DNA from: an uncultured Candidatus Saccharibacteria bacterium | Lineage (GTDB): Bacteria; Patescibacteriota; Minisyncoccia; Minisyncoccales; GWA2-38-27 | Direction of reading: 5' to 3' | Length of the DNA: 64,000 bases | NCBI GenBank assembly: GCA_964609075.1 | Contig: CAZSQP010000003.1 | Location: 36,907-100,906 of the forward strand | In this document: piece after piece, positions 27,183 to 52,201 of the stretch | Layout of the letters: the number at the start of each line of letters is the position of its first letter | Position numbering within the stretch: the first letter of the stretch is position 1 | The notes under the pieces: generated by a model | Database searches by the model: none | Told to the model about the DNA's origin: nothing | What the model saw: only the letters and a program-made list of their open reading frames with translations | Program-made: the position numbers and the translations under genes

Positions 27183-30100
27183 ATGGGAAAAAAGAAGCAA
27201 ATAATTTTATTCTGTCTTTTGCTCCTTTTGTTCTCTTTAGGAGCAGATTTTGTTTTAGCTTTAGAAATCAATTATCCTAATTTACCTGATACAGAACCTC
27301 CTCAAGACTTTCTCCAAAGACTTTCTCCAAATGAAGCTCTTCCTTTATATGTTGATTACTTTTTCAAGCTGGCTATCTGGATACTGGGTTTTGTAGCTTT
27401 TGGAGTTATGGTTTATGGAGGAGCTCTCTATTTAATCTCAACAGGAGAACCTGACAAGTTAGTTAAAGCTAGGGAGTTTATTTCTTCCTCTTTTTTTGGC
27501 ATTCTTATCCTTTTAACCTCCTACCTTGTTCTTTCTGTAATAAATCCAGATCTTGTTAATTTAGAAGCTCCAGAAATAGAAGAATTTACAATAGAAAGAG
27601 AACCGGAAGTCCCAGAGCCTAAAATTTTAGCTGCCAACACTTCTATTCACGTAGAGCTGCCTTTCGGAAGATTAATTGAAGGGGACATTTTTGAAACATA
27701 CATTTCAGATCCAAATGCTGTCCAGGGAAGAACGCCGAGATTGAGTAGAATTAAGAGTAATGCTAGTTCCACAATAGATATTGCCTCAAAGCTTTCTCAA
27801 AACAGCCAGCAACTGAGCAGCTTGGCTCAAAGCTGCGACTGTAGCCAGGCAGAACCTGTTTGTCCGAACTGCCAGCCTCAGGGAGCTACTCCTCTCTCTA
27901 ATATTTTGGGTCTTGAAGGAATGGGTGTTTTTTCCCAGATAACAGACAATCTTTCTGATATATTAGGAGAAGGGAATTTGGGTCCAGCTTTAGGTCTTTC
28001 AGAAGCTGTCTCTCGGGGCACAGGAAACATTGGAGAGCTTTCCAGCGTTTTGGATTCAATAGACCAAATTTCAAAAGATTTAAGCTTGTCTCAAAACCTA
28101 CCTCAAGCCTTTGAAATAGGAGGAGAAATAGCTTCTATAACCCAAAACCCCCAAGAACTTACAGGTATGGTCAATTCTATTGAGAATATGAGTCAGATAG
28201 CGGGTCTAGGAAATTTTCAGGAAGCTTTTAATATAGCTACCCAGGCAGCTTTGATAGCGGAGAACCCGGAAAACCTAACTAGTGTTCTGACTTCTGCAGA
28301 AAACATTACAGATATTACAGGAATTACCGGAGACCTTGGAGATACCTATAATATAGGGTATAACATAGCTTCTATAGTAGACAGCCCAAATAGCTATTCT
28401 TCTGTAGTAGGATCTATTGCTAACATCACAGGCATGCTCGACGTTCCGAGAGATCTCTCCGGCGTTTTCAGTACAGCTTATGATATGGCTTCTGTGGCAG
28501 ATAATCCTGCCAATATAGTGCCCCTTTTAAACTCCAACAAGAAAATAGCTAACATCCTAGGAAGCTCTAACAGAATGGAGGATGTTTTTAATGTTGGATA
28601 CAACGTAGCCTTAATAGCAGAGAACCCAGATCAATACTCCACCATAGTTGGAGCCGCCTCTAATATAACGGATATCATGGAAGCCCCAGTAAACCTAGGA
28701 GAGTCTTTCGGTATTGCTTATGATATAGCTTCTATTGCAGAAGAACCATCTAATATCTCTAGAACTTTTTCTTCTTTAGAAAATATAAATAGAACCATTG
28801 ACTCCCCAAATTATCTCAGACCTGCTTTTAAAACAGTTAGAGACTTAGGGTCTATTGTAAGAAACCAGAATAACCTAGAAAGTGTTCTTCTTTCTTCAGA
28901 AGAAATTGCCAGAAGAGTCAATGATTCAGATGATTTATTCAGAGCTTTTGAAAAAGCTCATGAAGCGACTGAAATAGTTGAAGATTACCAAAGATATCCA
29001 GAACTTGTAGAATCTATGGGAAGATTGAGCAGGATATTTGAAAACCCGGCTCATTTAGAGCAGGTTTTAGAAATAGCAAAAGAGAAAGATCTGGCTGAAG
29101 ATCCAGAAGAGCTCGTTGAGGCCTTAAGGGAAGATCCTGATTTCAGACATGTTGTTCCCCAAGAAGATATGGATAAAACTTTAGAGGAAATAGAAAATAT
29201 TGCAGAGAGAACTGACAGATTTGATGAAGTAGAAAGAATAACCAGAGAAGTTGAAAACATTGTACCTAATACAGGTAGTTTAGCTGATGTTTTTGAAAGA
29301 GTAGGAAGCGTTTCCCGTTTGACAGAAAACCCTGATGACTTAAGGAATATCTCTCTTGTATTAGAAGACTTTTCATACTTATCTGAAGACACAGAAGAAG
29401 CAGCTTTTCTTTTAGAAGAGTTCAGAGAAATATCTTTAATTACTCGTGATCTTTCTGACATAGAAAACCTTGAAAACCTAGCTGTAGAACTTAGTTATCT
29501 GGCAGGAGACCATTACGGATTCAACGAAGTTTTAAGGAACTTCGGAGGAGTGGCATCTGTTATCCAGGAGCCAGAAGATTTAAGAAATATACAATATGCC
29601 ATGGAAGATCTTTCTACAATTGTCCCAGAGTTAGAAGGCATGAGCTCTGTCTTAGAGAATTTTCAGGGAATAGGAACCCTTATTCAAGATCCCCAGGATA
29701 TGGGAAACATTAGAATGGCTATGACAGATCTTTCCCATGTTTTTCCTCAAGCAGGAGAGCTTTCTGACTTTTTAGGAGAATATTCTGGTATAGCCTCTTT
29801 AGTTGAAGACCCAACAGACTTTCAGAATATTCAAGCAGCTGCAGACAACCTTTCTGAAATTCTACCTCAGACAGGAAATCTTTCACAATATTTTGATAAT
29901 CTAGAAGGAATAGCTTCTTACGTTCAAGATCCAACTGATTTTCAGGGCCTTCAAGGAGCTCTTAGCGACTTATCTCAAATTCTGCCCGAGGCAGGTCAGC
30001 TTTCTGATTTTTTGGGGCAATACGAAAATTTAGCCTCGGTTATCCAGGACCCTACAGATCTAGCCAATATTCAAGGAGGATTAGAGGATCTTTCTCAGGT

Positions 30101-31493
30101 CATACCTCAAGCAGGAGAGCTTTCTGACTTTTTGGGAGAATATGCCGGAATAGCCAGTATTATTAATGATCCTCTTAACACAACGAATATAATGAATGCT
30201 GCCTCAAATCTTTCTCAAATAGCCCCTCAGCTTTCACCTGTTATGGGAGAGCTTAAAAGCTTAGGAGGGCTTTTTGGAGGACCTCAGGGAATTACCGGAG
30301 CTTTTTCTTCCGGTTCTTGCAACTGTGATACCTGTAAAAGCGTAAGAGGAGAAATAGAAAAGCTTCAGTTAGAAAACGTAGACAGCTTAATACCTTCTTT
30401 AAAAACAGAACAACAAAAGACGATAAGAGAAAGAGAAGACCTGGAAGAACAAATGGACAGATTAGAGAGGGCAGCAAAGTTTATCAATGCTTGCCCTTAC
30501 ACCCTAAAAGAAAGTTTAAGCCGCTTTTATCCAACTAAAGAATCTTACATCTCTAATAGAAGTGGAATTGTAAGGCAATTTCCTTTTTGGGACGACATCA
30601 TAATCCCTTATCTCACAGAACAAAACGAAACAGTTTCAGAATGGGCTTCTTTTCTTTGTATTATTGGAGGAAACATTCTTTCTGTAGCTAACCCAGTAGA
30701 ACATATGGGAGAAGCTTCCATCACAGGAGAATCTAGAACCTGTTTTAACGAAATACCTGTAGGAGACATCATAGAGAGAACTTTAAGAACAGCGAACCTC
30801 ATGACTCAGAAAATGGACCAAATTGTGTCTTTGGACAGAGAATTAATCTCGGAGATAGACAAGCTTCATGTTTTAATAAGCAACTGTACCTCTCAAGCCC
30901 CTCCCTGTTTTTCTGTCTGTATATGCGTTCCCTGTGAACATGGAGGAGGATGCTGTCCTTGCCTTAAATGGTGCGAAGGATCTGCCTGTCCATACGGGGA
31001 GATAAAAGATCAGGCTAAAAAGATTCAGCAGATTATAAATAGGAAAAACGGCTTGAGCTATACTATCAACAACCCGAACCCAGCTTCTCAACAAGGAATG
31101 CAAAATCAAGTCAAAGAGGGTATAGGATTAAACCCTATTATCGACACTATTGTTCCCGCTATCTTGCAAGACCTCCAGACCGAAGTAAGACATCCTATGA
31201 TGGCCTGCGAACCTCAGCAACACGAAGGAAACCTTATCCCCTGCAACAGAGCTGTAGGAAGAACTACTCCTGAAGGATTAATTCAAGGATGCGCTCAAGA
31301 TGAAGAGTTCTTTAACCCCTGCATTGAAAAGTGCTATCTTGAAGAAACCCAAGAAGAATATACCAACTGCCTCGAAAGCTGCCTTCTAATTCAAAAAGGG
31401 GTTTATTCTAATTTAGAGGGATCCGATGAAATTCCTAATTATCATCACGAATTAAACTTTTTCTGTTGCCCCGCAGAAACCTCGCCTAGATAA
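27183..31493 (+). CDS. Giant (1436-aa) secreted protein: N-terminal two-helix pilin-like (TrbC/VirB2-like) domain, a CxC motif, about 25 degenerate ~40-aa helical repeats, and a Cys-rich C-terminal domain
   Basis: Signal peptide; LEINYP; TM-loop(TGEPDK)-TM-INPDL module shared with 31496, 32698 and 51365. Repeats of the type DPxDxxNIQxAxxDLSxIxPQxGxLSDFLGEYxGIASxV. C-terminal Cys clusters CICVPCEHGGGCCPCLKWCEGSACP. Confidence 0.55.
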   Translation: MGKKKQIILFCLLLLLFSLGADFVLALEINYPNLPDTEPPQDFLQRLSPNEALPLYVDYFFKLAIWILGFVAFGVMVYGGALYLISTGEPDKLVKAREFISSSFFGILILLTSYLVLSVINPDLVNLEAPEIEEFTIEREPEVPEPKILAANTSIHVELPFGRLIEGDIFETYISDPNAVQGRTPRLSRIKSNASSTIDIASKLSQNSQQLSSLAQSCDCSQAEPVCPNCQPQGATPLSNILGLEGMGVFSQITDNLSDILGEGNLGPALGLSEAVSRGTGNIGELSSVLDSIDQISKDLSLSQNLPQAFEIGGEIASITQNPQELTGMVNSIENMSQIAGLGNFQEAFNIATQAALIAENPENLTSVLTSAENITDITGITGDLGDTYNIGYNIASIVDSPNSYSSVVGSIANITGMLDVPRDLSGVFSTAYDMASVADNPANIVPLLNSNKKIANILGSSNRMEDVFNVGYNVALIAENPDQYSTIVGAASNITDIMEAPVNLGESFGIAYDIASIAEEPSNISRTFSSLENINRTIDSPNYLRPAFKTVRDLGSIVRNQNNLESVLLSSEEIARRVNDSDDLFRAFEKAHEATEIVEDYQRYPELVESMGRLSRIFENPAHLEQVLEIAKEKDLAEDPEELVEALREDPDFRHVVPQEDMDKTLEEIENIAERTDRFDEVERITREVENIVPNTGSLADVFERVGSVSRLTENPDDLRNISLVLEDFSYLSEDTEEAAFLLEEFREISLITRDLSDIENLENLAVELSYLAGDHYGFNEVLRNFGGVASVIQEPEDLRNIQYAMEDLSTIVPELEGMSSVLENFQGIGTLIQDPQDMGNIRMAMTDLSHVFPQAGELSDFLGEYSGIASLVEDPTDFQNIQAAADNLSEILPQTGNLSQYFDNLEGIASYVQDPTDFQGLQGALSDLSQILPEAGQLSDFLGQYENLASVIQDPTDLANIQGGLEDLSQVIPQAGELSDFLGEYAGIASIINDPLNTTNIMNAASNLSQIAPQLSPVMGELKSLGGLFGGPQGITGAFSSGSCNCDTCKSVRGEIEKLQLENVDSLIPSLKTEQQKTIREREDLEEQMDRLERAAKFINACPYTLKESLSRFYPTKESYISNRSGIVRQFPFWDDIIIPYLTEQNETVSEWASFLCIIGGNILSVANPVEHMGEASITGESRTCFNEIPVGDIIERTLRTANLMTQKMDQIVSLDRELISEIDKLHVLISNCTSQAPPCFSVCICVPCEHGGGCCPCLKWCEGSACPYGEIKDQAKKIQQIINRKNGLSYTINNPNPASQQGMQNQVKEGIGLNPIIDTIVPAILQDLQTEVRHPMMACEPQQHEGNLIPCNRAVGRTTPEGLIQGCAQDEEFFNPCIEKCYLEETQEEYTNCLESCLLIQKGVYSNLEGSDEIPNYHHELNFFCCPAETSPR

Positions 31494-31495
31494 AA

Positions 31496-32701
31496 ATGAT
31501 TAGAGATAAAAAGAAAATATTAATAATTCTAGTTCTTTTTCTCCTCCTCTCTTTTGGTTTTGCTTTTGCCCAAAGAGATCTAGAAGTTGATTACCCCGGT
31601 TTTAATCCCTCTAGCACAGAGGATATTTTACCAGAGTATGTAGAATATATTTTCTATTTTATAGTATCTCTCTCAGGTTTTCTGGCTTTAGCATTTATGA
31701 TCTATGCGGGTACCCGCTATCTAACTTCGGCGGGAGACCCTTCAAAAATGCAAGAAGCCAAAGAACAATTAATTTCAGCTTCCTGGGGAATTCTTATCAT
31801 CTTAGCTTCCTACCTAATATTAGCGAATATAAATCCTCAGTTGACCTTAATAAAATTAGAAGTAGAGGATGTAGGAGAGATGCCTGCTCCAGAAGAGTCG
31901 CCTCCTGTAGCTCCTCCTGCCTATCCCAACTATTTATGGCGTATAAGTGAAATAGCAAACAGCACAAAACTTGTTATAGACCAAGAAAAAGGACTTATAA
32001 AATCAGCGGGACGCCTTCATTCTTTAACTAATAGATGCAACTGCAGTTTAACTAACCCTCTCTGCCTTTGCAGGTCATACATGGGAGGGGGTTGCCAGGC
32101 TGTTTACTGCTATGCTGGTTCTAAAAACCAACCCTGCCCTGACGAAGAAGGAATTAAAGAAGAGCAGCAGAATGTAATTGCCTCTTTCTCAGAATTGCTA
32201 TATTATAGAAAAAGAGCTGTAACAGAAAGAGAAGACTTCCTTTTACATATTAATGATCTAGAAAAGAAGATTCAGTTTTATGAAGAGAGGATATCTGTCG
32301 AGAAAAGCGACTATATTAAAGGAAAGCTTCAGGAAAGTTTGCAGACAGCTCAGGAACAGAGAGAACTTTACTTACAGCTTGAAGAAAAACTTAAAGAACT
32401 TTCTGAGTTAATCGTAGGAGCTTCTCTGGCAGCATCAAAACTCTCTAAACTGCCAGACGGAACAGAAGGAATACCAGGCTGTTTAGAAAATGTTAAAACG
32501 TTGTGTACAGGAACCTGCGCTGGAGGATGCCACAATACCTTGGAATGCTCTCCTATAAGCTGTTCTGGAGGTAATCCCTGCCCTATGCCCCAGATTATTC
32601 AAGAGAAGCAGACAGTTAACTCTTTTGGAAATAGAATTAAAGGGGTTTGCGATCAAATATTAACAATACTAGAACAAACAGAAACTGTTATCGTAAAATG
32701 A
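31496..32701 (+). CDS. Secreted protein: the same N-terminal pilin-like domain plus CNCS...CLC motif, coiled coil, and Cys-rich C-terminus (short paralog of 27183)
   Basis: LEVDYP...TM...YLTSAGDPSKM...TM...INPQL; stop overlaps the next start (ATGA). Confidence 0.5.
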   Translation: MIRDKKKILIILVLFLLLSFGFAFAQRDLEVDYPGFNPSSTEDILPEYVEYIFYFIVSLSGFLALAFMIYAGTRYLTSAGDPSKMQEAKEQLISASWGILIILASYLILANINPQLTLIKLEVEDVGEMPAPEESPPVAPPAYPNYLWRISEIANSTKLVIDQEKGLIKSAGRLHSLTNRCNCSLTNPLCLCRSYMGGGCQAVYCYAGSKNQPCPDEEGIKEEQQNVIASFSELLYYRKRAVTEREDFLLHINDLEKKIQFYEERISVEKSDYIKGKLQESLQTAQEQRELYLQLEEKLKELSELIVGASLAASKLSKLPDGTEGIPGCLENVKTLCTGTCAGGCHNTLECSPISCSGGNPCPMPQIIQEKQTVNSFGNRIKGVCDQILTILEQTETVIVK

Positions 32702-33921
32702 AAAGAATACTACTCATCATACTTTTTCTTTCTTTTTTCTCTCTAGTCGGGATTTGTTTCGCCCAGACTTCTTTAGAAGTAGATTATCCTTCTATTAGAG
32801 GATATGAAATAACAGAAGAAACTGTTACTTTTGGTAAATACATAAAATATATTTATCTTTTTGTTATAGCTATAAGCGGATTCATAGGATTAGGGGTTCT
32901 AATCTGGGCAGGTTTTAAATATATGACTTCTTCTGGAAATCCTGAAAGAATGGGGGACGCTAAAGACTGGATTACTAGAGCCCTAATAGGCCTTTTGATT
33001 ATCTTTCTTTCCTGGATAATAGTTAATACTATAAATCCAGAGCTTACTGTTTTAACAACGAAACCTACCGTTCCTTTCATTTCAGATCTCCCCAGAGGAG
33101 TGGTTTTATGCGAAAAACAGGTTGATTTAAATGGGGCTTGGCAGATTGTCCAAGAATATAAAGACCTTGATATTTCTTCTGATACTATAGATCGAAGAAA
33201 ACAATTAAAAGAAGATTTTGAAACCATAATGCAGGAAGTAATTCCAAACTGTATTTCCAGAACCGGAGCTGTAACAGGACTTACCAGAGATTTTAGATAT
33301 ATCTATCTAGTTCCCACAGAAAATAGAAATTATGGAGCTATAGCTTTTAAAAAATCAGGTTTTAGAGGAGAATTACAGATGTTTATGCCAGTAGAAGGAG
33401 ACCAACCGGTTTTAGGTAGACCAGTTGAGAAAACAATCAACTTAGACGATGTAGCTTCCGTTTACTCTTTTGCCTTAAATACAAATCCTGACCCCTCTTG
33501 GGGTGTTACTCTATACTCTGAAGAAAACTTCAATTACGCCCTTGATAAGCCCTGTGTAGAATATTCTATTGGAGGAGGAAGCTCGAGTGGTTGTGATCCT
33601 GGTAATATAAATTGGATTGAAAGTATAGGAATTGGCGCTCCAACCTCTATTAAAGATCAACTAGAAGGGAAAAGTCCCGAATCTTTAAGAATAGAAGGGA
33701 ATCTACTAGTGATTTTGACAAAAGACCCTAACGCTAAAGCTTCAGATCCTGGAACATATACTGTAAAAAAAGAAAGCGATCCCTCGCTTCTAAATGATGA
33801 TCCTATTATAAACTGGAGACCCTCTATCAGGAATATAAATCCGGAAGATAAGGGTTTGGAGCCTGTAGCTGCGGCCCAAAAGATGATAATCGTATCTTAT
33901 TCAACCGATTTAAGCGATTAA
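32698..33921 (+). CDS. Secreted protein: the same N-terminal pilin-like domain plus a roughly 290-aa non-Cys-rich extracellular domain
   Basis: LEVDYP...TM...YMTSSGNPERM...TM...INPEL. The ATG at 32698 (MKRILLIIL) is preferred over the track start at 32647. Confidence 0.5.
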   Translation: MKRILLIILFLSFFSLVGICFAQTSLEVDYPSIRGYEITEETVTFGKYIKYIYLFVIAISGFIGLGVLIWAGFKYMTSSGNPERMGDAKDWITRALIGLLIIFLSWIIVNTINPELTVLTTKPTVPFISDLPRGVVLCEKQVDLNGAWQIVQEYKDLDISSDTIDRRKQLKEDFETIMQEVIPNCISRTGAVTGLTRDFRYIYLVPTENRNYGAIAFKKSGFRGELQMFMPVEGDQPVLGRPVEKTINLDDVASVYSFALNTNPDPSWGVTLYSEENFNYALDKPCVEYSIGGGSSSGCDPGNINWIESIGIGAPTSIKDQLEGKSPESLRIEGNLLVILTKDPNAKASDPGTYTVKKESDPSLLNDDPIINWRPSIRNINPEDKGLEPVAAAQKMIIVSYSTDLSD

Positions 33922-40272: not shown

Positions 40273-42603
40273 TTATTTTTTATCTGATGGCTTTCTTCCT
40301 CCCGAGGGGAGATCAGAAGCCTTGCCAGGAGAACTAGAGCTTCCCCTCTTTCTTATTTCTTTTTTTAATTTTCGCCCTCTAAGACGGTCATATACTTTTT
40401 CTTTTTCATATCTTGCTCTAGCCTCTCTCTCCCTTCTTTTTTCTTCCTCTGGGGGCAAAGAAGATTCCCTAATAAGGGTGTCTACACCCTCTTTTGTGGT
40501 TATCGTTCCACCTTTTCCTCCTGCTCTTTTCCAATCATTTAAATAAGCTTGGCCTCCAGGGGTGTAAGCTACTTTTAAGAAAGAAGGGTTAGTTCTTGCC
40601 ATTTCTTTTAGTCCTACTCTTTCTTGAGCTGTTTTTTGGATATTAGCTACATGTTTCCCTCCTTTTGTTTCTCCTATTTCTCTAATAATAGACCAAGAGG
40701 CGTACTTGGCGAGAGCTTCTTGGAGCCCTTCATTATTAAGTGTTTTGTCATCTAAATTTTCAACATCTGGCTTCTTAAGCGCCTTTGCGGCCTTCTTAAA
40801 GGCAGCTTTTGCTTTGGCTGTTCCTTTATCGACCCCACTCTTCATCTGTTCTATAATATCATCTTCGTCTGCGAGATTATTTTGTATTAGTTCTCCAAGC
40901 TGATCATCTTCTATAAGTTCTGGTTTGTGTTTTATAAGGTTATCTAGGCTATTGGGAGTATATCTATCAGTTTGTTTGATTATACTGCGCAAGTCAGTTT
41001 CCGGTAGAGCATTAAGACCTTTTGCTCCCTTAGTCTCAGCTAAAGCTTGAGCACCCGCCATTTTTCCTGTGTAGTTTGTTGCAGATAGAGAAGATACGTA
41101 AGCTGCCATGCTTTTATAGTCTTTGCCAAACCTTTTCTTAATCTTCTCTTTATCCTCATTAACTCTATCTTGTATACCGGCTCCATAAGATAAAGCAGCA
41201 GCACCCAATTTTCTTTTTGCGTAACCGAAAGGAGTAGCAGCCTTTCCTAGAAAAGCTCCAACTTTACCTGCTTTAGTTTTAGCGTCCTTAACGCGCGGAA
41301 TTTGTCTTCTAGCAACCCATCTGGATGCTTTTTTACCCCACTCGCTGGTGAGGGCACGACCAGCGGTCTGTCTCGCCAGGCCTTTCCCTCCTCTTATAGC
41401 TCCTTTCCCTCCTTTTTTGGTTAAGTCAATAACGCTACTAGCTCCCATAGCACTAATGGAAACTGCCATAAAGAAGCCCATCACTAAAAAGATTATTACT
41501 ACCCCAAAAGGAAGTATCTCATTCAACAGTCCCCAATCGCTTTCTTGGCTTTGAATGTCGGTATTAATACGAGCTTCTCCTGTTTTTTGAACAAAGGAAT
41601 TAGTATCTAGCTCGGCTAACATATGAACTGAGAGATAGATAAAGAAAGCAGCTATTACTCCTATAAAACACCAAGCAAGAAACTGCTTCCACCACATATC
41701 AAAGAAAGTTCTTGTTTTAGGAAGGATGTAAGCAACAAAAGCTAAGGGTGAAAGTATTACCGCTATCCAAATAGCTATATAGCGAAAAGCAAAAAGAGCA
41801 GCAAATAAAAAGAAGATGAGGCCAGCTATTATAGAAAAAACAACAAGAACAGCCACCTTGCCAAGGATTCCAAGTTGGCCGGTTAAATTGTTTGCGTCGG
41901 TCTCTGACCAAGCATCCCGGACGCTATTTCCTACCTGACTAAATCCATTTCCCAAACTAGCAAAATCTAGAACGCCATCAGATCCAGAGCTCAGAAGAAA
42001 GTCCATCAGGATGTTAGAGGCATCAACGATAACGCCTAGAAGAACAGGAGCAAAGTTTATCAAAAGGGCTATAATTATCAGGGTGGGTAATGTCTTTTTG
42101 GCCTGATAACTTTCTAGTCTTAAAATAGTAGCTAATCCTATAACGATCAAAGCTAAAACAATCCCCATATTAGCCAAGTTACTAGTTACATTCCACCCTA
42201 GTTCTATAATGGGGTTGTCTAGTCCTGTATAAGAGAGAGAAATAAAGTCAGGGCTCATCACCCATTCCAAGATAAAAGCTGATAAAGAAACCCATAAAGT
42301 AGCGAGAGAAAGAGCTAGGGTAGCTATAAGCGTAGTAATAATTCTTAGAAGGCTTCCTAAAGAAGCTTCAAAAGCTTTTTTAGCTAAGTCTCCCAAAAGA
42401 CTGCTCTCTTTATTCCCTTCATACGCCTCAGATTCTGGTCCTAAATAACTAGAAGGAGAAGTGCCTCCCTGAGCCAGTTTGACAGGTTTAGTTTCAGCAA
42501 TTGTTGTTTGGCAAGTGAAAACAAGAGAAACTAGTATAATTAAAAACAACAGAAATCCCTTTTTCCTTAAAAATCCAGTTAGTATATTCAACTTATCCAC
42601 CAT
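40273..42603 (-). CDS. Large polytopic membrane protein with a long Lys-rich C-terminal tail; VirB6/TrbL-like topology
   Basis: Signal/TM, periplasmic segment, at least 6 TM helices, then about 380 aa of hydrophilic tail. Start placed at the internal Met (MVDKLN) to avoid overlapping ksgA. Confidence 0.35.
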   Translation of the reverse strand: MVDKLNILTGFLRKKGFLLFLIILVSLVFTCQTTIAETKPVKLAQGGTSPSSYLGPESEAYEGNKESSLLGDLAKKAFEASLGSLLRIITTLIATLALSLATLWVSLSAFILEWVMSPDFISLSYTGLDNPIIELGWNVTSNLANMGIVLALIVIGLATILRLESYQAKKTLPTLIIIALLINFAPVLLGVIVDASNILMDFLLSSGSDGVLDFASLGNGFSQVGNSVRDAWSETDANNLTGQLGILGKVAVLVVFSIIAGLIFFLFAALFAFRYIAIWIAVILSPLAFVAYILPKTRTFFDMWWKQFLAWCFIGVIAAFFIYLSVHMLAELDTNSFVQKTGEARINTDIQSQESDWGLLNEILPFGVVIIFLVMGFFMAVSISAMGASSVIDLTKKGGKGAIRGGKGLARQTAGRALTSEWGKKASRWVARRQIPRVKDAKTKAGKVGAFLGKAATPFGYAKRKLGAAALSYGAGIQDRVNEDKEKIKKRFGKDYKSMAAYVSSLSATNYTGKMAGAQALAETKGAKGLNALPETDLRSIIKQTDRYTPNSLDNLIKHKPELIEDDQLGELIQNNLADEDDIIEQMKSGVDKGTAKAKAAFKKAAKALKKPDVENLDDKTLNNEGLQEALAKYASWSIIREIGETKGGKHVANIQKTAQERVGLKEMARTNPSFLKVAYTPGGQAYLNDWKRAGGKGGTITTKEGVDTLIRESSLPPEEEKRREREARARYEKEKVYDRLRGRKLKKEIRKRGSSSSPGKASDLPSGGRKPSDKK

Positions 42604-42622
42604 TAAGATATTATAGCAAAAG

Positions 42623-43426
42623 TTAAAATAAAGTGCCAAATGAATTAGCAAGTTTTACCCAGTCTTTGATAGATAAAGTTTCAGCCCTGGCTTTAGGGTT
42701 AAGGCCCTCTTTTAGAAGAATTCTTTTAATTTTATCTTTATCAACTTCTTTTGAAAGATTATTTAAGAGCTGTTTTCTGGGTTGGGAAAAGCCCAGCTTA
42801 ACTATTTTGAAAAATAAATTGCTGTCTACCTTATATTTATATTCAGGAGTGATCTTTAAAAAAGAGCTGTCTACTTTCGGTTTTGGCCAAAAGGAGTTTT
42901 TAGAAACATTAAAAAGTATTTCAGGGTTTCCGTAAAACTGAACAGAAACAGCCAAGATGCTCATATTAGGAGGAGAAGCTGTTATTCTTTCTGCTACTTC
43001 TTTTTGAACCATTAAGTATATTTCTTTTAAAGAGGCCTCTTCTAAAAGCTTTCTTATAACAGGAGAAACTATATAGTAGGGAAGGTTGGCTACTACTTTA
43101 AAATCTTTAAATTGAGAAAGATCTATTTTAAGGATGTCTTTGTTTAGAACTTTCACATTGTTGACATCAGAAAGAGTTTTCTTTAATATCTTACACATTA
43201 AGGGATCTTTTTCTACGGATATAATCTTTTTAGCTTTTTGAGAAAGCCCTAAAGTAAGAGCTCCTAAGCCGGGGCCTATCTCTAGAACAGAATCTTCTGA
43301 AACATCAACAGATTCTAATATTTTTGAAAGAATATTTTTGTCTACAAGAAAGTTCTGACCTAGCCTTTTAGAGGGGCGAACGCCTTCAAGCAATTCCTTT
43401 ATTTTTTTCTTGGAAGTTAAGTCCAT
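42623..43426 (-). CDS. rsmA: 16S rRNA (adenine1518/1519-N6)-dimethyltransferase
   Basis: LGQNFLVD...LEIGPGLGALT motifs. Confidence 0.85.
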   Translation of the reverse strand: MDLTSKKKIKELLEGVRPSKRLGQNFLVDKNILSKILESVDVSEDSVLEIGPGLGALTLGLSQKAKKIISVEKDPLMCKILKKTLSDVNNVKVLNKDILKIDLSQFKDFKVVANLPYYIVSPVIRKLLEEASLKEIYLMVQKEVAERITASPPNMSILAVSVQFYGNPEILFNVSKNSFWPKPKVDSSFLKITPEYKYKVDSNLFFKIVKLGFSQPRKQLLNNLSKEVDKDKIKRILLKEGLNPKARAETLSIKDWVKLANSFGTLF

Positions 43427-43654: not shown

Positions 43655-44647
43655 TTGTTAACCGTTGTTCTTTTCTCTGGTTTGGTTCTAGGGTCAAATG
43701 CAGTCTTAAAATTCCTTCCTCTCAAGGAATTTTCTTTTTTGACAGCAAATTGTTCAAGTAGTATTTCTTTAAATAAGGTCTTTGCAGAGCCTGCCAGAAA
43801 CTTTCTTACAGACTCTCCTGATGTTGTTTTTTCCCAGGAGAATAGTATTTTAGGGTATGCTCCCCATGCCGTGGTTAATCCTCAGGTTTTAGGAAGCTTG
43901 AGTAGTTCTTCTCAGAATAAAGAGATAAGGGAATATCTTATTAAGGAAGGAGATACTATATCTTCTTTAGCAGAGGAGTTTGATATTTCCGTGGAGACAA
44001 TACTTTGGGCTAATGATTTAAGCAGTAGTTCTATAATAAAGCCGGGAGAAGAGCTCCTTATACTCCCTACTTCAGGTGTTTTATATATGGTTAAGAAGGG
44101 AGATACTTTAAGTACTATAGCTCAAAGATACAAAGGAGATGTTGAGGAAATGGTTTCTTACAATAGTCTTGAGAGCGAAGAAGATATTTTTGTAGGAGAT
44201 ATTATTCTTATTCCTGGAGGAAAAGAACCAAAGGAAACTCCGAAGATTAGTTCCGCGCCTATTGCCGATTCCTACTTTATGTTTCCTTGCGAGGGAGAGA
44301 TAAGTCAAGGACTTCATGGGGCTTTCGGCAATGCTATTGATATCGCTAATAAATGCGGCAAACCTGTTGTAGCTGCTGCTGGAGGAACTGTACAGAGAGC
44401 AGGATGGATAACAATCGGCGGTCAAAGAGTGACCATTCTTCATTCCAACGGAGTAGTAAGTTATTACGGCCACCTTTCAGCTATAAATGTTGTTCCCGGA
44501 CAAAAGGTTAATAGAGGAGAGATTATAGGGTATATAGGAAATACCGGATATACAATTGGTATGACAGGTTGTCATCTTCACTTTGAAGTAAGAGGAGCAA
44601 GGAACTTTTTATCAAACTATAGCGTAGGCAGTCATATAAACTGGTAG
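43655..44647 (+). CDS. Secreted peptidoglycan hydrolase: two LysM domains + M23 metallopeptidase
   Basis: Two LysM repeats (YLIKEGDTISSLAEEF; YMVKKGDTLSTIAQRY) and M23 His motifs (HLHFEV). Confidence 0.8.
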   Translation: MLTVVLFSGLVLGSNAVLKFLPLKEFSFLTANCSSSISLNKVFAEPARNFLTDSPDVVFSQENSILGYAPHAVVNPQVLGSLSSSSQNKEIREYLIKEGDTISSLAEEFDISVETILWANDLSSSSIIKPGEELLILPTSGVLYMVKKGDTLSTIAQRYKGDVEEMVSYNSLESEEDIFVGDIILIPGGKEPKETPKISSAPIADSYFMFPCEGEISQGLHGAFGNAIDIANKCGKPVVAAAGGTVQRAGWITIGGQRVTILHSNGVVSYYGHLSAINVVPGQKVNRGEIIGYIGNTGYTIGMTGCHLHFEVRGARNFLSNYSVGSHINW

Positions 44648-44698: not shown

Positions 44699-45067
44699 CT
44701 ATTTTGCGCACTTTGCGCACTTTTCAGCTTCAGGGTAGGATTTTAGCCTCTTCTCCTCTATTTTCTTTCCACAGCTTTCGCATTTTCCATACTTTCCCTT
44801 TTTTATCTTACCTAGAGCTTTATTTACTTTTTGGAGGCGCAATTCAAGACTGTGCTCTATGGGTAATAGGGTAGCGTACTTTTCCACTTGGTCTGCTGCA
44901 TCTTCTAAAGCTTGGCTGCCTACTCCGCTGTCTACTTCTGGAAACCTAGTGTCCCAGTCCCCCTCAAGCTTTTTATCTTTAGAGGCAAAGCTTTCAAGAT
45001 CTGATTCGAGATTCTTCTTTTCTTTCTCTAGTTTTTCTTTTAATTCTTTTTCTAAACTCTTTTTCAT
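44699..45067 (-). CDS. DksA/TraR-family C4 zinc-finger protein
   Basis: Cx2Cx17Cx2C (CESCGKK...KCAKC) at the C-terminus of a coiled-coil protein. Confidence 0.6.
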   Translation of the reverse strand: MKKSLEKELKEKLEKEKKNLESDLESFASKDKKLEGDWDTRFPEVDSGVGSQALEDAADQVEKYATLLPIEHSLELRLQKVNKALGKIKKGKYGKCESCGKKIEEKRLKSYPEAEKCAKCAK

Positions 45068-46881
45068 CTTCCGTATAACTCGTTTAGTTTCTTTTTGGTT
45101 AAGGCATCGACAACACCAGTCCCTTCATTTAGGCCGCTTGGATCAAGTATTTCTTCTCTGTATTTGTTTTGAAAATTAATAACAGCTCTTTGAGTTAAAG
45201 GACCGAACCAACCACTGATTATTCCTTCAGGATAAACATTGGGATCTTGAGAAAGCCATTTTTGAAGCAGTCTTACCTCGTCTCCATGGTCTCCATACCT
45301 CAAGTCTTCTGTAATTTCTGGTCTTGGAGGAATAGCGCCTGATTCACCATAAAGCTCGTTTAGCTTAACTCTTGTGTACCGCCCTGCTTTTCCAGTCCCT
45401 TTTACTTTGCCTTGAGGAGCTAAAATCTCAGAAGCGTATTTTTCCTGGAATTTGGTTACAGCTTGGGTAGTAAGAGGACCGTAAAAACCGGTAACTAGTC
45501 CTCTGGGGTAGGTAGCGGCGTCTTGAGCAAGCCAGGTCTGGAGAACCTCCACCTCGTATCCTCTGTCTCCGTATTCAAGATCCTGAGTTAGTTCTACTGT
45601 GGGTCCGGGGATACCAAGCTTTTCTATTACTTGTTCCATACTATTAAAAGAACTTGTAAAGACAAAATAGTTGTCTGAGACAAGGTAGCAGATTCCAACA
45701 TCGCTTGTATCTAAGGTTTGATATCTAAAATTATGGCCTACGTATCCTGGAAGCTGATTAGCGTTTCTAAAGTAATTAACTACTGGAGGCTTGTCTTCTA
45801 TTACAAGAGCAAAGAGAGGTTTAAAGTCTTCTTCCATACTGGATTCTTGGGAAAGTAGGATATTTTCTAGATTTTCTTTCTCTTTTACTTCTACAACAAA
45901 ACCTATTCTGTTTCCCTGAGGTTGGGAATAAACGAATAAATTAAAGTCATCTTCAACAAGAGAATAGATATTATTAGGATCTCTTATCTCTAGCGCGTCA
46001 AAGAAGTCTTGAAGGTTTAAGAAATTATTTTCTGATGTGTTTTTAAATATTATTCTTTTGAATGTTCCTGTGTCTAAAAATTCTTGGAAAGTCTGAGAGA
46101 GCAAGCTTTCAACTTCATTTAGGTTAGAAATTTCTAAAGTTCTCTTCTCTGAGACAGGGAAGAGAGAGGGAGGTGCTACTATCTCTTCTTTTTCTTTTAA
46201 ACAAACGCCGTTTTCGCAATAAAATCCCTCCTGGCAGTCTTCGTTATTACTACACTGTTCTAGAGAAGGAGCTTCTTTACAATTTCCTTCAGAGCTACAA
46301 ACAAAACCTGTGGGACAATCTTGGTCTGCAGTGCAACCTATATGAGGTTCTGGTCTCACCTTAAAATACCAGTACCAGAAACTTGCTACTCCAGCCAGAA
46401 CAACTAGTATTAAACAGAAAACAACTATTCTTACCCATAGTTTTTCTCTTAGAGAAAGTTTTTTAGGAAGGGGTCTTATAAAAGGAGGGGCTTTTTCTTG
46501 GGGTTTTTCAGCTTCAGGAGGTTTTCTCTCGGTTTTTTCTTTCTTAGGAGAAGGTCTTCTAAAAGACAGAGAAGGTCCTGGGGAGGACTCTTTTCTAGAG
46601 GGAGGAACAGGAGCTGTTTCTTTAACTTTCTTTTTTGTTTTGTTTTTCAGTTTTTCTAATCTTTCTTTTGCTTTCTTTATCCTTTCTGCTGCTGATTCTT
46701 CCGGCTTTTCTTTGTTCTGTCTTATTATTTCTTCTAAAATCTGACTAGGAGAAGCTCCTCCTTTTAAAGCTTTTTCAAATACCTCTTTTTTAGAGGGGTT
46801 CTGTTCAATTATCTCTTCTAGTATTTTCTTGTCTTCAGTCCCTCTTTCTCTGGCTTTTTTGATTGATTCTACTATTCCCAT
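45064..46881 (-). CDS. Membrane protein with a Cys-rich module and two C-terminal peptidoglycan-binding (PG_binding_1-like) domains
   Basis: TM segment LWVRIVVFCLILVVLAGVASFWYWYF and two copies of LxYGDxGxEVxxLQxWL...G.FGP.T..AV..FQ.KY. Confidence 0.5.
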   Translation of the reverse strand: MGIVESIKKARERGTEDKKILEEIIEQNPSKKEVFEKALKGGASPSQILEEIIRQNKEKPEESAAERIKKAKERLEKLKNKTKKKVKETAPVPPSRKESSPGPSLSFRRPSPKKEKTERKPPEAEKPQEKAPPFIRPLPKKLSLREKLWVRIVVFCLILVVLAGVASFWYWYFKVRPEPHIGCTADQDCPTGFVCSSEGNCKEAPSLEQCSNNEDCQEGFYCENGVCLKEKEEIVAPPSLFPVSEKRTLEISNLNEVESLLSQTFQEFLDTGTFKRIIFKNTSENNFLNLQDFFDALEIRDPNNIYSLVEDDFNLFVYSQPQGNRIGFVVEVKEKENLENILLSQESSMEEDFKPLFALVIEDKPPVVNYFRNANQLPGYVGHNFRYQTLDTSDVGICYLVSDNYFVFTSSFNSMEQVIEKLGIPGPTVELTQDLEYGDRGYEVEVLQTWLAQDAATYPRGLVTGFYGPLTTQAVTKFQEKYASEILAPQGKVKGTGKAGRYTRVKLNELYGESGAIPPRPEITEDLRYGDHGDEVRLLQKWLSQDPNVYPEGIISGWFGPLTQRAVINFQNKYREEILDPSGLNEGTGVVDALTKKKLNELYGR

Positions 46882-46891: not shown

Positions 46892-48397
46892 TTAAATTTT
46901 GAAATCTAAATCAGAAAGATTAGATTCTTTTTCAGGAGTTTCTTTTTTAACCTCCTCTTTTGATTCTTCTGGTTGTTTTTTAGGTTCCTCGACTTCTTTT
47001 TCTGTAGGCTCTTTCTTCGGAGCTTCTTCTTTAATCTCTTCTTTTTTAACCTCCTCCTTAGGTTTTTCTTCTTCCTGAGGCTCTTTTTCTGGAGTTTCTT
47101 TTTTGATCTCTTCTTCAGGTCCTCCTGAAAGCTGTTTATCTATTTCTTTTATTCTATCTACAACACTTGCTGCTTGATTTAAAATATCCTGCCTTCTCTT
47201 TTCCGTATCTTTAATTTTCTTTTCTGCTTGATTCTTCTGGTTTTCTATGTCCCACCTTTCTTTTTCTTTTTCCTTTCTTTTTTTCTCAATTTCCCACCTT
47301 TCTTTTTCTAGCTTTTCTTTCTCTTTGAGGTCTTCTGTTATTTCTTCCTCCTCCTCTATAAGTCTTTTATCTTCTTCTATTTGCTTTTCTTCTTCCTTTG
47401 TTTTTTCCAGAGACTGTTTTATCTCTTCAAGCTTTTGCTGAGTTTCCTCATTTTCTTTTAAAAGAGAGGACTTAACCTGTTCTAGTCTTTTCTGCTTTAT
47501 TTTTAAGTCCATTTTCTCTATTTGAATATCTATATTCTTCTTTTCCTCTTCAATTTCATCTATTTTCTGCTGGATTTCATTTTCTTCCTGCTTAATATCT
47601 TCTAGTTTTTGATCTAATTCTTTTATCTTCGCTTGGCTTTCTTGTATTTTTTTATCCCAAGGCCACCTCTTTTTTTCCTGCTCCCTCCTCTTTTCTTCTG
47701 CTTTCCATCTTTCTTTCTCTATCTTTCTTTTTTTCCTTTCATTGGTAGCCTTTTTTTCTTTTTCTTCAAGTCCTCTTAATTTTTCTTCAAGCTTTTCTTC
47801 TCTTTTAGAAATGGCTTCAAACTTTGCCTTAGTGTTTTCTATTTCTTTTTCAAAGTCCCCCTTTTCTTTTAAAATAGGGTCTTTTTTAGTTGAAAACTGT
47901 TGGAGTTTGTTTTTAAGGTCTTTTTCTTTCTGTTCTAATTCCTCCTTTTTTTCTAAAAGGATCTTTTTCTTGTATTTTGGATCATTTTTTCTTTTTTCCT
48001 CCTCTTTCCTCTTCCTTTCTTCTGCCTCTTTTCTAGCTTCCTCCTCTTTCCTCTTCCTTTCTTCTGCTTCCTTTCTAGCTTCCTCCTCTTTCCTTTTCCT
48101 TTCTTCTGCTTCCTTTCTAGCTTCCTCCTCTTTCCTCTTTCTTTCTTCTGCCTCCTTCTTAGCTTCCTTTCCTTTCCTTCCCTCTTCTTTTATCTTTGTT
48201 TCTTCTAACGTTTCCTTCTCTTCTTCAATTTTTTCCTCGATTTCTTCCTGTCTTTCTATTTGTGCCTCCTGAGGTTTTCGCTCTTGAGGTTTGGGTAGTT
48301 CTTCTTTCGGTCTTTTTTTCTCTAGAGGTTCTCCTTTTTTAGCCCTCTCAATATCCTTCTTCATTGTGCGGATATTTTTATTGTTTTTTTGGGCCAT
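46892..48397 (-). CDS. Highly charged Lys/Glu-rich coiled-coil protein with 14-aa tandem repeats (EEARKEAEERKRKE)
   Basis: Low-complexity K/E composition; DNA tandem repeat present. Confidence 0.45.
   Translation of the reverse strand: MAQKNNKNIRTMKKDIERAKKGEPLEKKRPKEELPKPQERKPQEAQIERQEEIEEKIEEEKETLEETKIKEEGRKGKEAKKEAEERKRKEEEARKEAEERKRKEEEARKEAEERKRKEEEARKEAEERKRKEEEKRKNDPKYKKKILLEKKEELEQKEKDLKNKLQQFSTKKDPILKEKGDFEKEIENTKAKFEAISKREEKLEEKLRGLEEKEKKATNERKKRKIEKERWKAEEKRREQEKKRWPWDKKIQESQAKIKELDQKLEDIKQEENEIQQKIDEIEEEKKNIDIQIEKMDLKIKQKRLEQVKSSLLKENEETQQKLEEIKQSLEKTKEEEKQIEEDKRLIEEEEEITEDLKEKEKLEKERWEIEKKRKEKEKERWDIENQKNQAEKKIKDTEKRRQDILNQAASVVDRIKEIDKQLSGGPEEEIKKETPEKEPQEEEKPKEEVKKEEIKEEAPKKEPTEKEVEEPKKQPEESKEEVKKETPEKESNLSDLDFKI
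47997..48164. repeat. Tandem repeat, 42-bp unit x about 4
   Basis: cttcctcctctttcctcttcctttcttctgcttcctttctag repeated; encodes the 14-aa repeat. Confidence 0.8.
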
Positions 48398-48406
48398 AAA
48401 AGACTT

Positions 48407-51006: not shown

Positions 51007-51273
51007 TTACTTTTTAAGCCCGATTTTTTTAACCAGGCTATTATATTTCCTTTTATCTTCCTCTTCTAGGTATTTTAAGAGCTTTCTCCTTTTAGAAACC
51101 ATTTTCAAAAGCCCCCTTTTTGAGTGAAGGTCTTTAGCGTGTTTCTTTAAATGGGAGAGAAGCCTGTTAATCTCTTCTGTCAACAGAGCTATTTGAACTT
51201 CAGCAGAACCTGTATCTTTGTCGTGAAGCTTATATTTCTCTATAATTTTGGTTTTTTCTTCTTTAGTTAACAT
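51007..51273 (-). CDS. rpsO: 30S ribosomal protein S15
   Basis: [14 protein letters not shown]...[16 protein letters not shown]. The internal Met start is preferred over the track start at 51327, which would run into the tRNA. Confidence 0.85.
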
Positions 51274-51318
51274 ATCTTCTTTTATTATACATTTTTTATT
51301 TAAAATAAAAAGAGGTTG

Positions 51319-51391
51319 TGCCCCCACTAGGGCTCGAACCTAGAACAAACTGCTTAAGAGGCAGCTACTCTTCCAATTGAGTTATGGGGGC
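51319..51391 (-). tRNA. tRNA-Lys (anticodon CUU)
   Basis: Manual fold: acceptor GCCCCCA/TGGGGGC, D-stem ACTC/GAGT, anticodon stem GCTGC/GCAGT with loop CT-CTT-AA, T-arm CTAGG-TTCGAGC-CCTAG, discriminator A. Confidence 0.8.
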
Positions 51392-52201
51392 GCAAGATAG
51401 TAGGTTCGTCTCTTTTTCTATTCTATAAGACGAAGAGTTGCTCTCGCACTCAATTTTCCACCAACCTTCTCTTAGTCCTGTCCAAGTGTTAACTCCAATT
51501 ACCCAGAAGAAAGCATTTACAATAAGCCAGGCAGCGTAAATAAGAATGAGGCCTATTGCTACAGACTTAAAGAGAGTTCTCGCCTTAGATAGAGTATCTG
51601 GTCCTCCTTTTCCGCTGTAAGCTAAAATAAACATAAATCCTCCTATAGCTATCATAAAAGCTGCTGCCAAAGGAACTATTCTGAAGAGAACATAGTTGAC
51701 TATTCGGGAGAACATTACAAAAAGATCGCAAAAGGTGCAAGGACATCCAGGCGTTCCACAAGGAACAAGACCTTCTGTGGGACATCCTGTTCTTCCAGAT
51801 CCAACCGTACCTATCATTCCTGTTGAAGGGGTAACTCCTTGCTCTCTAGCTGCTCTTCTTACTTCTTCTGGATCAACGCCAAAGTCTTCTTCAAACATTC
51901 TGTCTAAACCTTCGTCAATTCTCTCTGAACTAAGATAATCATCCCAGAAGTTTTCTTGTTCTTCTGGGGGAAGATCATTGAACAATTCTTCCGTATTATA
52001 CTCTTCTGGGTTTTCAAATACATCAGAAGGGATTACAGGAGTAAAGTCTTCTTCCTCGCCTGCTGGGAATTCAGTAGGAGTATCAGGATCATATCCTCCG
52101 GTATCTCCTCCGTTAACATCTCCCTCCATAAGAGAAGCATAAGCTACTCCTGCTGTTGAGAGGAGGAGGGCTATTAATAGAAATAGAAATACCTTTTTCA
52201 T
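51365..52201 (-). CDS. Secreted acidic protein with a Cys-rich segment and a C-terminal copy of the two-helix pilin-like domain
   Basis: Signal peptide. ...GCPTEGLVPCGTPGCPCTFC...TM...AYSGKGGPDTLSKAR...TM.... The 3' 27 nt overlap tRNA-Lys. Confidence 0.45.
   Translation of the reverse strand: MKKVFLFLLIALLLSTAGVAYASLMEGDVNGGDTGGYDPDTPTEFPAGEEEDFTPVIPSDVFENPEEYNTEELFNDLPPEEQENFWDDYLSSERIDEGLDRMFEEDFGVDPEEVRRAAREQGVTPSTGMIGTVGSGRTGCPTEGLVPCGTPGCPCTFCDLFVMFSRIVNYVLFRIVPLAAAFMIAIGGFMFILAYSGKGGPDTLSKARTLFKSVAIGLILIYAAWLIVNAFFWVIGVNTWTGLREGWWKIECESNSSSYRIEKETNLLSCAPITQLEE

Follow-up and report, generated by a model that had tools for sequence, protein, structure and literature searches.

What are the four proteins that carry a two-helix membrane module in a 64 kb stretch of contig CAZSQP010000003.1, and what does it mean that three of them are encoded directly behind a gene for the ATPase VirB4? 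The stretch (hereafter the window, meaning the whole of the DNA analysed) is from an uncultured Candidatus Saccharibacteria bacterium, and its closest relatives are metagenome-assembled genomes (MAGs) that bear the label 'uncultured Candidatus Saccharibacteria bacterium'. A preliminary description, made from the DNA alone, had proposed that the module is a TrbC/VirB2-like pilin fold which anchors variable extracellular domains, and that the proteins form a system of exchangeable tips. We read the four genes as PF18895 components of the chromosomal, origin-proximal type IV secretion system (T4SS) of Patescibacteria (candidate phyla radiation, CPR), subunits that would be assembled by VirB4 and would display host-contact ectodomains, a reading to which we assign a probability of about 0.6. 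All four open reading frames (ORFs) were found where the preliminary description had placed them, and the loop strings that it quoted are present in the translations. The proteins and their modules are as follows.

27183..31493, + strand: protein 1, 1436 amino acids (aa); signal peptide, pilin module, linker, helix plus C-x-C motif, probable repeat rod, Cys-rich C-terminal domain
27261..27557, + strand: pilin module of protein 1, residues 27-125 (LEINYP ... YLISTGEPDKL ... INPDL); alignments and a family hidden Markov model (HMM) score of 111.9 bits
31496..32701, + strand: protein 2, 401 aa; signal peptide, pilin module, Pro-rich disordered linker, disulfide-rich elongated helical bundle (predicted)
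31580..31846, + strand: pilin module of protein 2, residues 29-117 (LEVDYP ... YLTSAGDPSKM ... INPQL); PF18895, alignments and predicted hairpin
32698..33921, + strand: protein 3, 407 aa; signal peptide, pilin module, alpha/beta region, beta-rich domain with a predicted double beta/gamma-crystallin-like fold
32770..33048, + strand: pilin module of protein 3, residues 25-117 (LEVDYP ... YMTSSGNPERM ... INPEL); PF18895, alignments and predicted hairpin
51365..52201, - strand: protein 4, 278 aa; signal peptide, acidic low-complexity stretch (about residues 25-130), Cys-rich motif, predicted pilin hairpin, short tail
51449..51787, - strand: pilin core of protein 4, residues 139-251: CPTEGLVPCGTPGCPCTFCDLF, helix, SGKGGPDTLSKAR, helix, WTGLREGWWKIEC

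The N-termini of proteins 1-3 follow one plan. A signal peptide ending in an A-x-A-like site precedes LE(V/I)xYP, after which come helix 1, the loop Y(L/M)xSxG(D/E/N)Pxx(L/M)xxA(K/R), helix 2 and INPxL. By BLAST the three modules are 28-41% identical across 102-127 aa (E values of 1e-22 and 1e-18 for protein 1 against proteins 2 and 3, respectively), their alignment contains 22 invariant columns, and hydropathy is consistent with two hydrophobic helices around a short polar loop. AlphaFold2 (AF2) modelled a helical hairpin in protein 2 (helices 45-77 and 82-111) and in protein 3 (helices 44-77 and 82-111) with predicted local distance difference test (pLDDT) scores of about 75-84. The correct start of protein 3 is the ATG at 32698, which overlaps the stop codon of protein 2 (ATGA). 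On these alignments the three N-terminal copies are clear paralogs. Profile comparison places their module in a T4SS pilin family: the curated gathering threshold of PF18895 (T4SS_pilin) is 26.6 bits, and the scores were 35.2 bits for protein 2, 39.9 bits for protein 3 and 28.1 bits for protein 4. The same family was matched by all 23 of 23 diverse module sequences (best E value 2e-12). Hence, the proposal of a pilin-family domain was borne out. No fifth copy of the module was present among window ORFs of at least 50 aa in the six frames.

The module had been described as common to all four proteins, and for proteins 1-3 this stood. Protein 4, however, has only helix 1, a G-G-P-D-x-L-x-x-A-R loop and helix 2 in common with them (28-33% identity over 43-65 aa) and lacks both LE..YP and INP.L. 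Its own invariant motifs are C-x7-C-x4-C-x-C-x2-C (CPxxGLVPCGTxxCPCxxC) before helix 1 and W-x-I-E-C (WxIxC) after helix 2, and among nine orthologs the core has 27 invariant columns, six of which are Cys. An independent HMM was built from 90 other family members with protein 4 left out; it gave protein 4 a score of 19-20.7 bits, whereas none of 1000 shuffles of the residues of protein 4 exceeded 8.6 bits. These scores indicate that protein 4 is a distant member, in a separate subfamily, of the same domain family.

Orthologs of protein 4 conserve only the C-terminal 44% of the protein. The acidic N-terminal stretch occurs in a minority of them, and several have C-terminal extensions instead, which are 100-150 aa in length. 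In the window the locus reads tRNA-Arg, protein 4, tRNA-Lys, rpsO; the order in relatives is cca, protein 4, rpsO, NYN, pnp, and the neighbours of protein 4 are kept in three further loci (L005-L007). The tRNA-Lys(ctt) gene (51318-51391, - strand) extends into the protein 4 ORF, whose last 27 nt it shares, and also into the long, GTG-start version of rpsO. Given this overlap and the extensions of the orthologs, the short non-conserved tail of protein 4 may be a local truncation. The tRNA-Arg(tcg) gene (52498-52571, - strand) lies within the 447-bp gap upstream of protein 4, and thus an ORF at 52341-52589 is spurious. Protein 4 has almost no ectodomain and is a candidate for a plain structural pilin. 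Southlakia epibionticum likewise has a non-essential 'pilin' adjoining rpsO.

Proteins 1-3 are encoded by the last genes of an operon. The segment 23922-33921 is tightly packed, neighbouring genes overlapping or lying 0-4 nt apart, and the order is PrgI/VirB3-like, TrsD/TraC-like, VirB4, a 144-aa membrane protein and proteins 1, 2 and 3. The genes that accompany the pilin genes, together with a more distant candidate, are listed here.

23922..24320, + strand: PrgI/VirB3-like small membrane protein, 132 aa, two transmembrane helices; Pfam PF12666 (PrgI), 34.8 bits against a cut-off of 27
24323..24952, + strand: TrsD/TraC-like protein, 209 aa; residues 7-129 match positions 2-125 of the NCBIfam CD1110 VirB4 model (E value 9e-8)
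24949..26745, + strand: VirB4, 598 aa; NCBIfam NF045971 ('VirB4-like conjugal transfer ATPase, CD1110 family'), 369 bits against a cut-off of 325
26745..27179, + strand: conserved 144-aa membrane protein between VirB4 and the pilin genes; hydrophobic segments
40273..42651, - strand: 792-aa polytopic membrane protein, candidate VirB6/TrbL-like channel subunit; at least eight hydrophobic segments

The PrgI/VirB3-like gene is the first recognizable T4SS gene of the operon, a position that it keeps in all seven related T4SS loci inspected (L001, L003, L020, L021, L022, L023 and L024). The 209-aa protein matched TrsD of NCBIfam with an E value of 0.004 and its orthologs match Pfam PF26593 (TraC-like), whereas VirB4 also matched the Pfam families P-loop_TraG (87.7 bits) and AAA_10. 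VirB4 is split, in that its N-terminal domain is encoded by a gene of its own (24323-24952) with a 4-nt overlap with the ATPase gene (24949-26745), and the split is present in every related locus inspected. The VirB4 ortholog of L001 (1457-5248) has 1263 aa owing to an intein with a LAGLIDADG endonuclease; the window VirB4 lacks the intein and the two proteins are 93% identical over their common part. The 144-aa protein, which matched no Pfam or NCBIfam family, is 70% and 46% identical to its orthologs in L001 and L003, respectively, and a small transmembrane protein occupies its position in L001, L003, L020, L023 and L024. We considered it as a hidden pilin and rejected this, since it has no similarity to the module. 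The start of the protein 1 gene lies 438 nt downstream of the VirB4 stop codon.

Directly 3' of protein 3, on the opposite strand, are jag, yidC, yidD and rnpA, and then follow dnaA, dnaN, a gene for a Band-7 protein, the gene for the 792-aa polytopic protein and ksgA, with rnpA, dnaA, dnaN and ksgA all within 17 kb of the pilin genes. The 792-aa protein itself matched no family; its positional orthologs match PF19590 (TrbL_3), a match that is faint in L001 and unmarked in L020, and we put it forward as a weak candidate for a VirB6-like subunit of the same T4SS. The window has 56 main ORFs (longest non-overlapping), and Pfam scans of 54 of these (the other two are of 54 and 64 aa) gave no coupling protein (VirD4), relaxase or integrase. 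VirB5, VirB7, VirB9 and VirB10 were likewise not found in this system. The locus sits between PBP1a/tyrS and rnpA/dnaA with synteny kept, and this conserved synteny, together with the absence of a relaxase, integrase or coupling protein, led us to reject an integrative conjugative element or plasmid.

The proposed check, whether homologs adjoin VirB4 in related genomes too, had a positive outcome: a pilin module gene lies directly downstream of VirB4 in the window and in six of the seven related loci. A search for related loci with an alignment of nine sequences gave only three close MAGs. In L001, L003, L020, L021, L023 and L024, VirB4, a small transmembrane protein and two to three proteins with an N-terminal module are encoded beside jag-yidC-rnpA-dnaA. 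The full triad, ordered as in the window and preceded by VirB4 and the small membrane protein, occurs in three of these loci: L001 (1427, 397 and 409 aa; 62-75% identity to the window proteins, the ortholog of protein 1 having 66%), L003 (672, 406 and 384 aa; about 30-40% identity) and L020 (674, 425 and 420 aa). In L021, L023 and L024 VirB4 is followed by two N-terminal-module proteins and one protein without the module, and one module protein of L024 bears a Lamin-tail domain (LTD). L022 differs in having a single 224-aa pilin next to a 705-aa polytopic protein. When the window was compared with L003, the passengers were 27-38% identical, the modules 49-52%, VirB4 79% and DnaA 71%, so that divergence is greatest in the passengers, intermediate in the modules and least in VirB4 and DnaA, the pattern typical of surface proteins.

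That the ordered triad persists in relatives of only about 30% identity speaks for subunits that are fixed and co-operate, rather than for exchangeable tips. The same three orthologs in the same order, at 62-75% and again at about 30-40% identity, contradict the exchangeable-tip system of the preliminary description, as does protein 4, which keeps its own rpsO locus. The passenger differences seen between distant lineages are domain shuffling over evolutionary time, not within-genome cassettes.

How general is the fusion of the hairpin to a large domain? A profile of the three modules was searched against 1.84 billion proteins, the counts being of cluster representatives, and gave a family of 61,007 at E values of 1e-3 or less and 8,309 at 1e-10 or less. 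A detailed sample was made of the best 150 matches listed, of which 149 were analysed; this sample is biased to the subfamily of the query. A single module was found in 90 of the 149, and in each of them it lies inside the N-terminal 60 residues. These 90 proteins have a median length of 408 aa, only six are of 200 aa or less, and the extension has a median of eight Cys. The other 59 of the 149 best matches have 2-10 tandem modules per chain (among P0035-P0088; for example, 8 in 820 aa and 10 in 1775 aa). Stand-alone members that lack a passenger also exist (131-214 aa); their alignments extend up to profile positions 97-100 and they keep INPxL. Judged from these matches, members of the subfamily of the query normally have a C-terminal extracellular domain fused to the module, and the fusion architecture is common in public metagenomic proteins.

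The passengers had been described as different from protein to protein. The ectodomains of proteins 1-3 do differ, and their sizes range from 284 to 1311 aa, but the first passenger part, a helix plus a C-x-C motif, is common to proteins 1 and 2 (30% identity over 201 aa), and the acidic stretch that had been counted as the passenger of protein 4 is absent from most of its orthologs. The AF2 model of protein 2 (pLDDT 82) has helices at 146-179, 217-268, 272-321 and 364-400 plus two Cys-rich beta-hairpins. These form an elongated bundle (pLDDT about 95) in which the long helices are capped by the Cys-rich beta-hairpins, and residues 114-142 are a disordered, Pro-rich linker. The 21 full-length orthologs of protein 2 (26-82% identity) share 14 invariant Cys. 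A Foldseek search of the full model against the PDB gave no significant fold, the best match being XaxA (E value 0.057) among generic helical bundles. We also considered protein 2 as a fused VirB5, a reading left unsupported as there was no VirB5/TraC-like match in the Foldseek top 50.

For protein 3 the AF2 model has a mean pLDDT of 70, with values of 83-93 at residues 130-275 and low confidence at 276-325. In a Foldseek search against the PDB, ranks 1-17 were all beta/gamma-crystallins (best E value 8e-4, probability 1.0), with target template-modelling scores of 0.53-0.58 among the better-superposed structures. However, the pLDDT of the model is 70 overall, and Pfam gave no PF00030 match in protein 3. 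Greek-key-like Y/F-x4-F/Y-x-G strings are visible in both protein 3 and its L003 ortholog, and a relative (P0030) combines PF00030 (Crystall) with PF18895. The ectodomain of protein 3 is tentatively predicted to be a double beta/gamma-crystallin, and the predicted fold matches both two-domain crystallins and single domains from microbes; known microbial examples are Protein S of Myxococcus and the Flavobacterium domain 3hzb.

The passenger of protein 1, a protein with 30 Cys in total, has two further parts.

27906..30305, + strand: about twenty tandem 40-residue repeats of protein 1, residues 242-1041; detected by BLOSUM62 scores at lag 40
30306..31490, + strand: Cys-rich C-terminal domain of protein 1, residues 1042-1436 (about 395); 31% identity over 478 aa to the C-terminal part of the L003 ortholog

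The mean BLOSUM62 score of protein 1 against itself was +1.02 at lag 40 versus about -0.9 at adjacent lags, and the units have a helical sub-period of 3.5 residues. The repeat block is probably an extended alpha-helical rod or spacer. Tandem Repeats Finder detected no DNA-level repeat in the protein 1 gene, the 40-aa repeats being seen in the protein only, and hence the repeats are old. The block is wholly absent from the 672-aa L003 ortholog, and it is therefore a lineage-specific spacer.

The chromosomal T4SS of Patescibacteria has been described as having an MPF-FATA-like VirB4, PrgI, TrsD and VirB6, with pilins detected by use of PF18895 (Quinonero-Coronel et al. 2025, PMC12102498). That survey reported 441 arrays of VirB2-like pilins, each of 2-11 pilin genes, located near virB4, dnaA, dnaN, rnpA and ksgA and usually without a relaxase (PMC12102498). 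In S. epibionticum neither this system nor its pilin array is dispensable (Wang et al. 2023, PMC10633639; review PMC12857230), and the role of the Patescibacteria T4SS has been called completely unknown (PMC11665869). The window locus resembles these systems in having PF18895 pilins, PrgI/VirB3, TrsD, an MPF-FATA-like VirB4, tandem divergent pilin paralogs and perhaps a VirB6-like protein, in its position near dnaA, rnpA and ksgA, in the lack of a relaxase or coupling protein nearby and in the extra pilin beside rpsO. It differs in protein size. In S. epibionticum the six pilins that are essential are small (381-417 nt for the genes with a stated length; domains within about 126-185 aa), whereas proteins 1-3 have 1436, 401 and 407 aa. 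In the literature searched, the family is treated as one of small pilins and we found no discussion of pilin fusions with large ectodomains.

Outside Patescibacteria, the clear relatives by profile and translated searches are the Mbov_0395-type pilin-like proteins of single-membrane bacteria. NCBIfam NF045849 (Mbov_0395 pilin-like) scored 30.7 bits for protein 2 (E value 2e-7) and 35.7 bits for protein 3 (E value 5e-9), although none of the proteins reached its equivalog cut-off of 40 bits and proteins 1 and 4 gave no match. A 151-aa protein of a Pontibacillus megaplasmid (tblastn E value 8e-4), which is encoded near a CD1110-type VirB4, reads ...YSGFKYITSQGDPKKSEEAK... and has the loop ...YxTSxGDPxK...AK.... 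The hairpin and loop of the Mbov_0395/MMCAP2_0565 family (Mollicutes integrative conjugative elements and Bacillota plasmids) are similar to those of the window modules, but Mbov_0395-type proteins are short, stand alone and are encoded on mobile conjugative elements, whereas the window genes belong to the chromosomal core and encode large fusions. Haloarchaeal plasmid 'pilins' matched weakly (E values of 0.2-0.7).

With the TrbC/VirB2 pilins of double-membraned bacteria (T-pilus, RP4 and F-like pili) the window proteins share a cleavable signal peptide, a hydrophobic hairpin of two helices joined by a short polar loop and a place beside VirB3 and VirB4. These pilins serve as our working model of how the module might be used. 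Canonical TrbC/VirB2 pilins are small (precursors of about 100-130 aa) and have no fused domains, in contrast to the 1436, 401, 407 and 278 aa of the window proteins, and in the canonical systems tip adhesion is provided by a separate VirB5. 'VirB2-like' as used here thus denotes a likeness of architecture, gene neighbourhood and family name, not a demonstrable homology. A parallel of another kind is given by the minor or tip pilins of type IV pili, in which a conserved anchor that can enter the filament bears a large variable tip domain for adhesion, and several non-identical proteins of this sort are encoded together and act as a complex. A type IV pilus pilin has one helix, at its N-terminus, carries a site for prepilin peptidase and depends on a PilB-type ATPase for assembly. 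Proteins 1-3 are like them only in functional logic, as fold and machine are unrelated.

How might such proteins work? We infer a route in which proteins 1-3 would be exported by Sec/YidC, the signal peptide being cut just before LE(V/I)xYP, and would lodge in the membrane as a hairpin of two alpha-helices, with the two termini facing the exterior and the G(D/N)PxK...AK loop facing the cytoplasm. With both ends of the hairpin outside, the C-terminal ectodomain would be extracellular and its conserved Cys would be able to form disulfides; this predicted topology agrees with the preliminary description, which had placed the Cys-rich passengers outside the cell. By analogy with VirB2, VirB4 together with the VirB3-like and VirB6-like proteins would pull the hairpins from the membrane, and these would stack into a short pilus or a wall-spanning stalk. 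The bundle of protein 2, the crystallin pair of protein 3 and the rod and Cys-rich head of protein 1 would then be shown at the surface or tip for host contact. Proteins 1-3 are co-inherited in a fixed order and are translationally coupled, which argues that they act together. Hence, they are most likely distinct, non-redundant subunits, in the manner of minor or tip pilins, and not interchangeable alternatives.

Several observations weigh against this route. A pilus or stalk has yet to be observed for a T4SS of Patescibacteria (PMC11665869), and sequence and profile comparisons did not establish homology to structurally characterized pilins. Direct membership of TrbC/VirB2, as first proposed, was not upheld: the Pfam family PF04956 (gathering threshold 27.9 bits) gave at best 15-17.3 bits (E values of 0.005-0.03), in protein 3 and in 5 of 23 relatives, and hhalign of a 90-sequence module profile with seven annotated plasmid VirB2/TrbC proteins gave a probability of 1.1%. 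PDB sequence searches with module profiles of 3 and 23 sequences returned only chance matches to membrane proteins (E values of at least 0.4). Even within PF18895, protein 1 scored only 16.1 bits, which is below the cut-off. A domain of 290 to 1300 residues on each subunit would be hard to pack in a VirB2-type filament, and a homopolymer is thus unlikely. The tandem-module chains described above are covalently chained hairpins, which are difficult to square with simple extraction of single pilins. As a positive charge of the loop between the helices is not evident, the positive-inside rule cannot fix the topology. Finally, protein 4 sits 25 kb from VirB4 and its positional counterpart in S. 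epibionticum is non-essential.

The main rival to polymerization is that the hairpin is a static two-helix anchor, perhaps docked on the VirB3/VirB6/VirB4 complex, which holds adhesin-like ectodomains, with nothing being polymerized. The three proteins would then be the extracellular cap or adhesin layer of a pilus-less, single-membrane T4SS and play the role of Gram-positive conjugation adhesins. The Gram-positive (MPF-FATA) systems, the class to which this VirB4 belongs, are mostly pilus-less with surface adhesins, and such an adhesin (e.g., PrgB) was not found in Patescibacteria (PMC12102498). Bulky passengers would fit poorly into a filament, the relatives with 2-10 tandem modules (4-20 transmembrane helices) resemble polytopic membrane proteins more than extractable pilins, and the modules weakly match other two-helix transmembrane domains (Htr2 for eight of the 23 modules, Tetraspanin for five). 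However, a generic anchor has no need of some 13-22 invariant positions, including the mature N-terminal LE..YP and INPxL, kept across thousands of proteins. Moreover, the passenger-less members of 130-200 aa and the six small essential pilins of S. epibionticum have nothing to anchor. We regard static anchoring as possible, if on the unlikely side. That the similarity is merely compositional, a chance likeness of hydrophobic segments without a true module, can be given almost no credence: protein 4 does align over just 43-65 residues at about 30% identity, but the profile scores exceed curated cut-offs, protein 4 far outscored its shuffled versions (20.7 against at most 8.6 bits), and the loop and glycine positions are conserved across families. 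Compositional similarity alone, which the preliminary description had allowed for, is therefore not the case.

Two other readings accept the module and assign the passengers a different part. If there were one pilin anchor with alternative passengers that are swapped or alternatively expressed to alter host specificity, the variation among distant lineages would find a ready explanation, since the first protein of the same operon position ranges from 672 to 1436 aa, with or without repeats or with an LTD, the second position is sometimes without a module, and passengers diverge faster than modules; it has also been speculated that divergent pilin arrays aid adaptation to different hosts (PMC12102498). 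Within the clade, however, each of the three proteins is a one-to-one ortholog and their order is kept over a range of identities that begins at 80% and reaches about 30%. Being coupled in translation within a single operon, the genes are not separately switched, proteins 1 and 2 have part of their passenger in common, and the window contains no repeats, recombination sites, silent cassettes or extra copies. Such swapping is improbable. A little less credible still is that the module is a handle recognized by VirB4 and the passengers are cargo released onto or into the host, for example by cleavage at the Asn-Pro of INPxL. That motif is nearly invariant right at the junction of module and passenger, in the protein 2 model a disordered Pro-rich linker comes after it, and a non-DNA substrate has been suggested for the system, which lacks a coupling protein and a relaxase (PMC10633639). 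Yet stand-alone pilins that lack a passenger also keep INPxL, which therefore belongs to the module itself, there is no sign of cleavage, and the passengers (repeat rod, crystallin domains) look structural rather than enzymatic. We thus retain the reading of VirB4-assembled PF18895 subunits.

Other genes of the window also concern the cell envelope or recall parts of this system. Between ksgA and a dksA-like gene lies a LysM plus M23 peptidase gene (43655-44647, + strand), and LysM-M23 or LysM-CHAP genes adjoin ksgA near T4SS genes in L022 and L023; the product could be the cell-wall hydrolase (VirB1 role) of the T4SS. A 605-aa protein (45064-46881, - strand) has one transmembrane helix, a Cys-rich repeat (DUF7107/Myxo_Cys_RPT) and two peptidoglycan-binding domains. 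Next to it a 501-aa protein without family match is encoded (46892-48397, - strand), in a segment that coincides with a strongly negative AT skew (-0.44). Both genes are kept beside pnp in relatives, and their products may be cell-wall-associated partners of the envelope machinery. Elsewhere in the window are genes for a T2SSE-family ATPase of the type IV pilus or competence type (1211-2509, + strand), a Lamin-tail-domain protein (4001-5137, + strand), the domain also found fused to the pilin module in L024, a 1496-aa PKD/Ig-domain protein (7449-11939, - strand) and a PMT-family protein O-mannosyltransferase (15509-16870, + strand).

The T4SS and its pilin arrays are already published, and the pilin triad with large ectodomains is an under-described variant of them. 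One could go further and see here an undescribed class of T4SS component, in which a VirB2-like hairpin would serve as the insertion or assembly handle for large ectodomains resembling adhesins, a fixed heterotrimeric set (rod with Cys-rich head, helical bundle and crystallin pair) would form the host-contact tip or cap in place of VirB5 or adhesins, and the repeat number of protein 1 would set how far the device reaches towards the host; we offer this as speculation and think it doubtful. The T4SS is one of a small number of machines that Patescibacteria have been shown to need for life as epibionts, and attention has so far been on small VirB2-like pilins. In a large part of the family, however, the hairpin bears big, fast-evolving, disulfide-rich domains of surface type, encoded directly behind VirB4. 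Such fused proteins are obvious candidates for the host-contacting parts of the machine, targets for antibodies, CRISPR interference (CRISPRi) and tomography, and a possible handle on host range.

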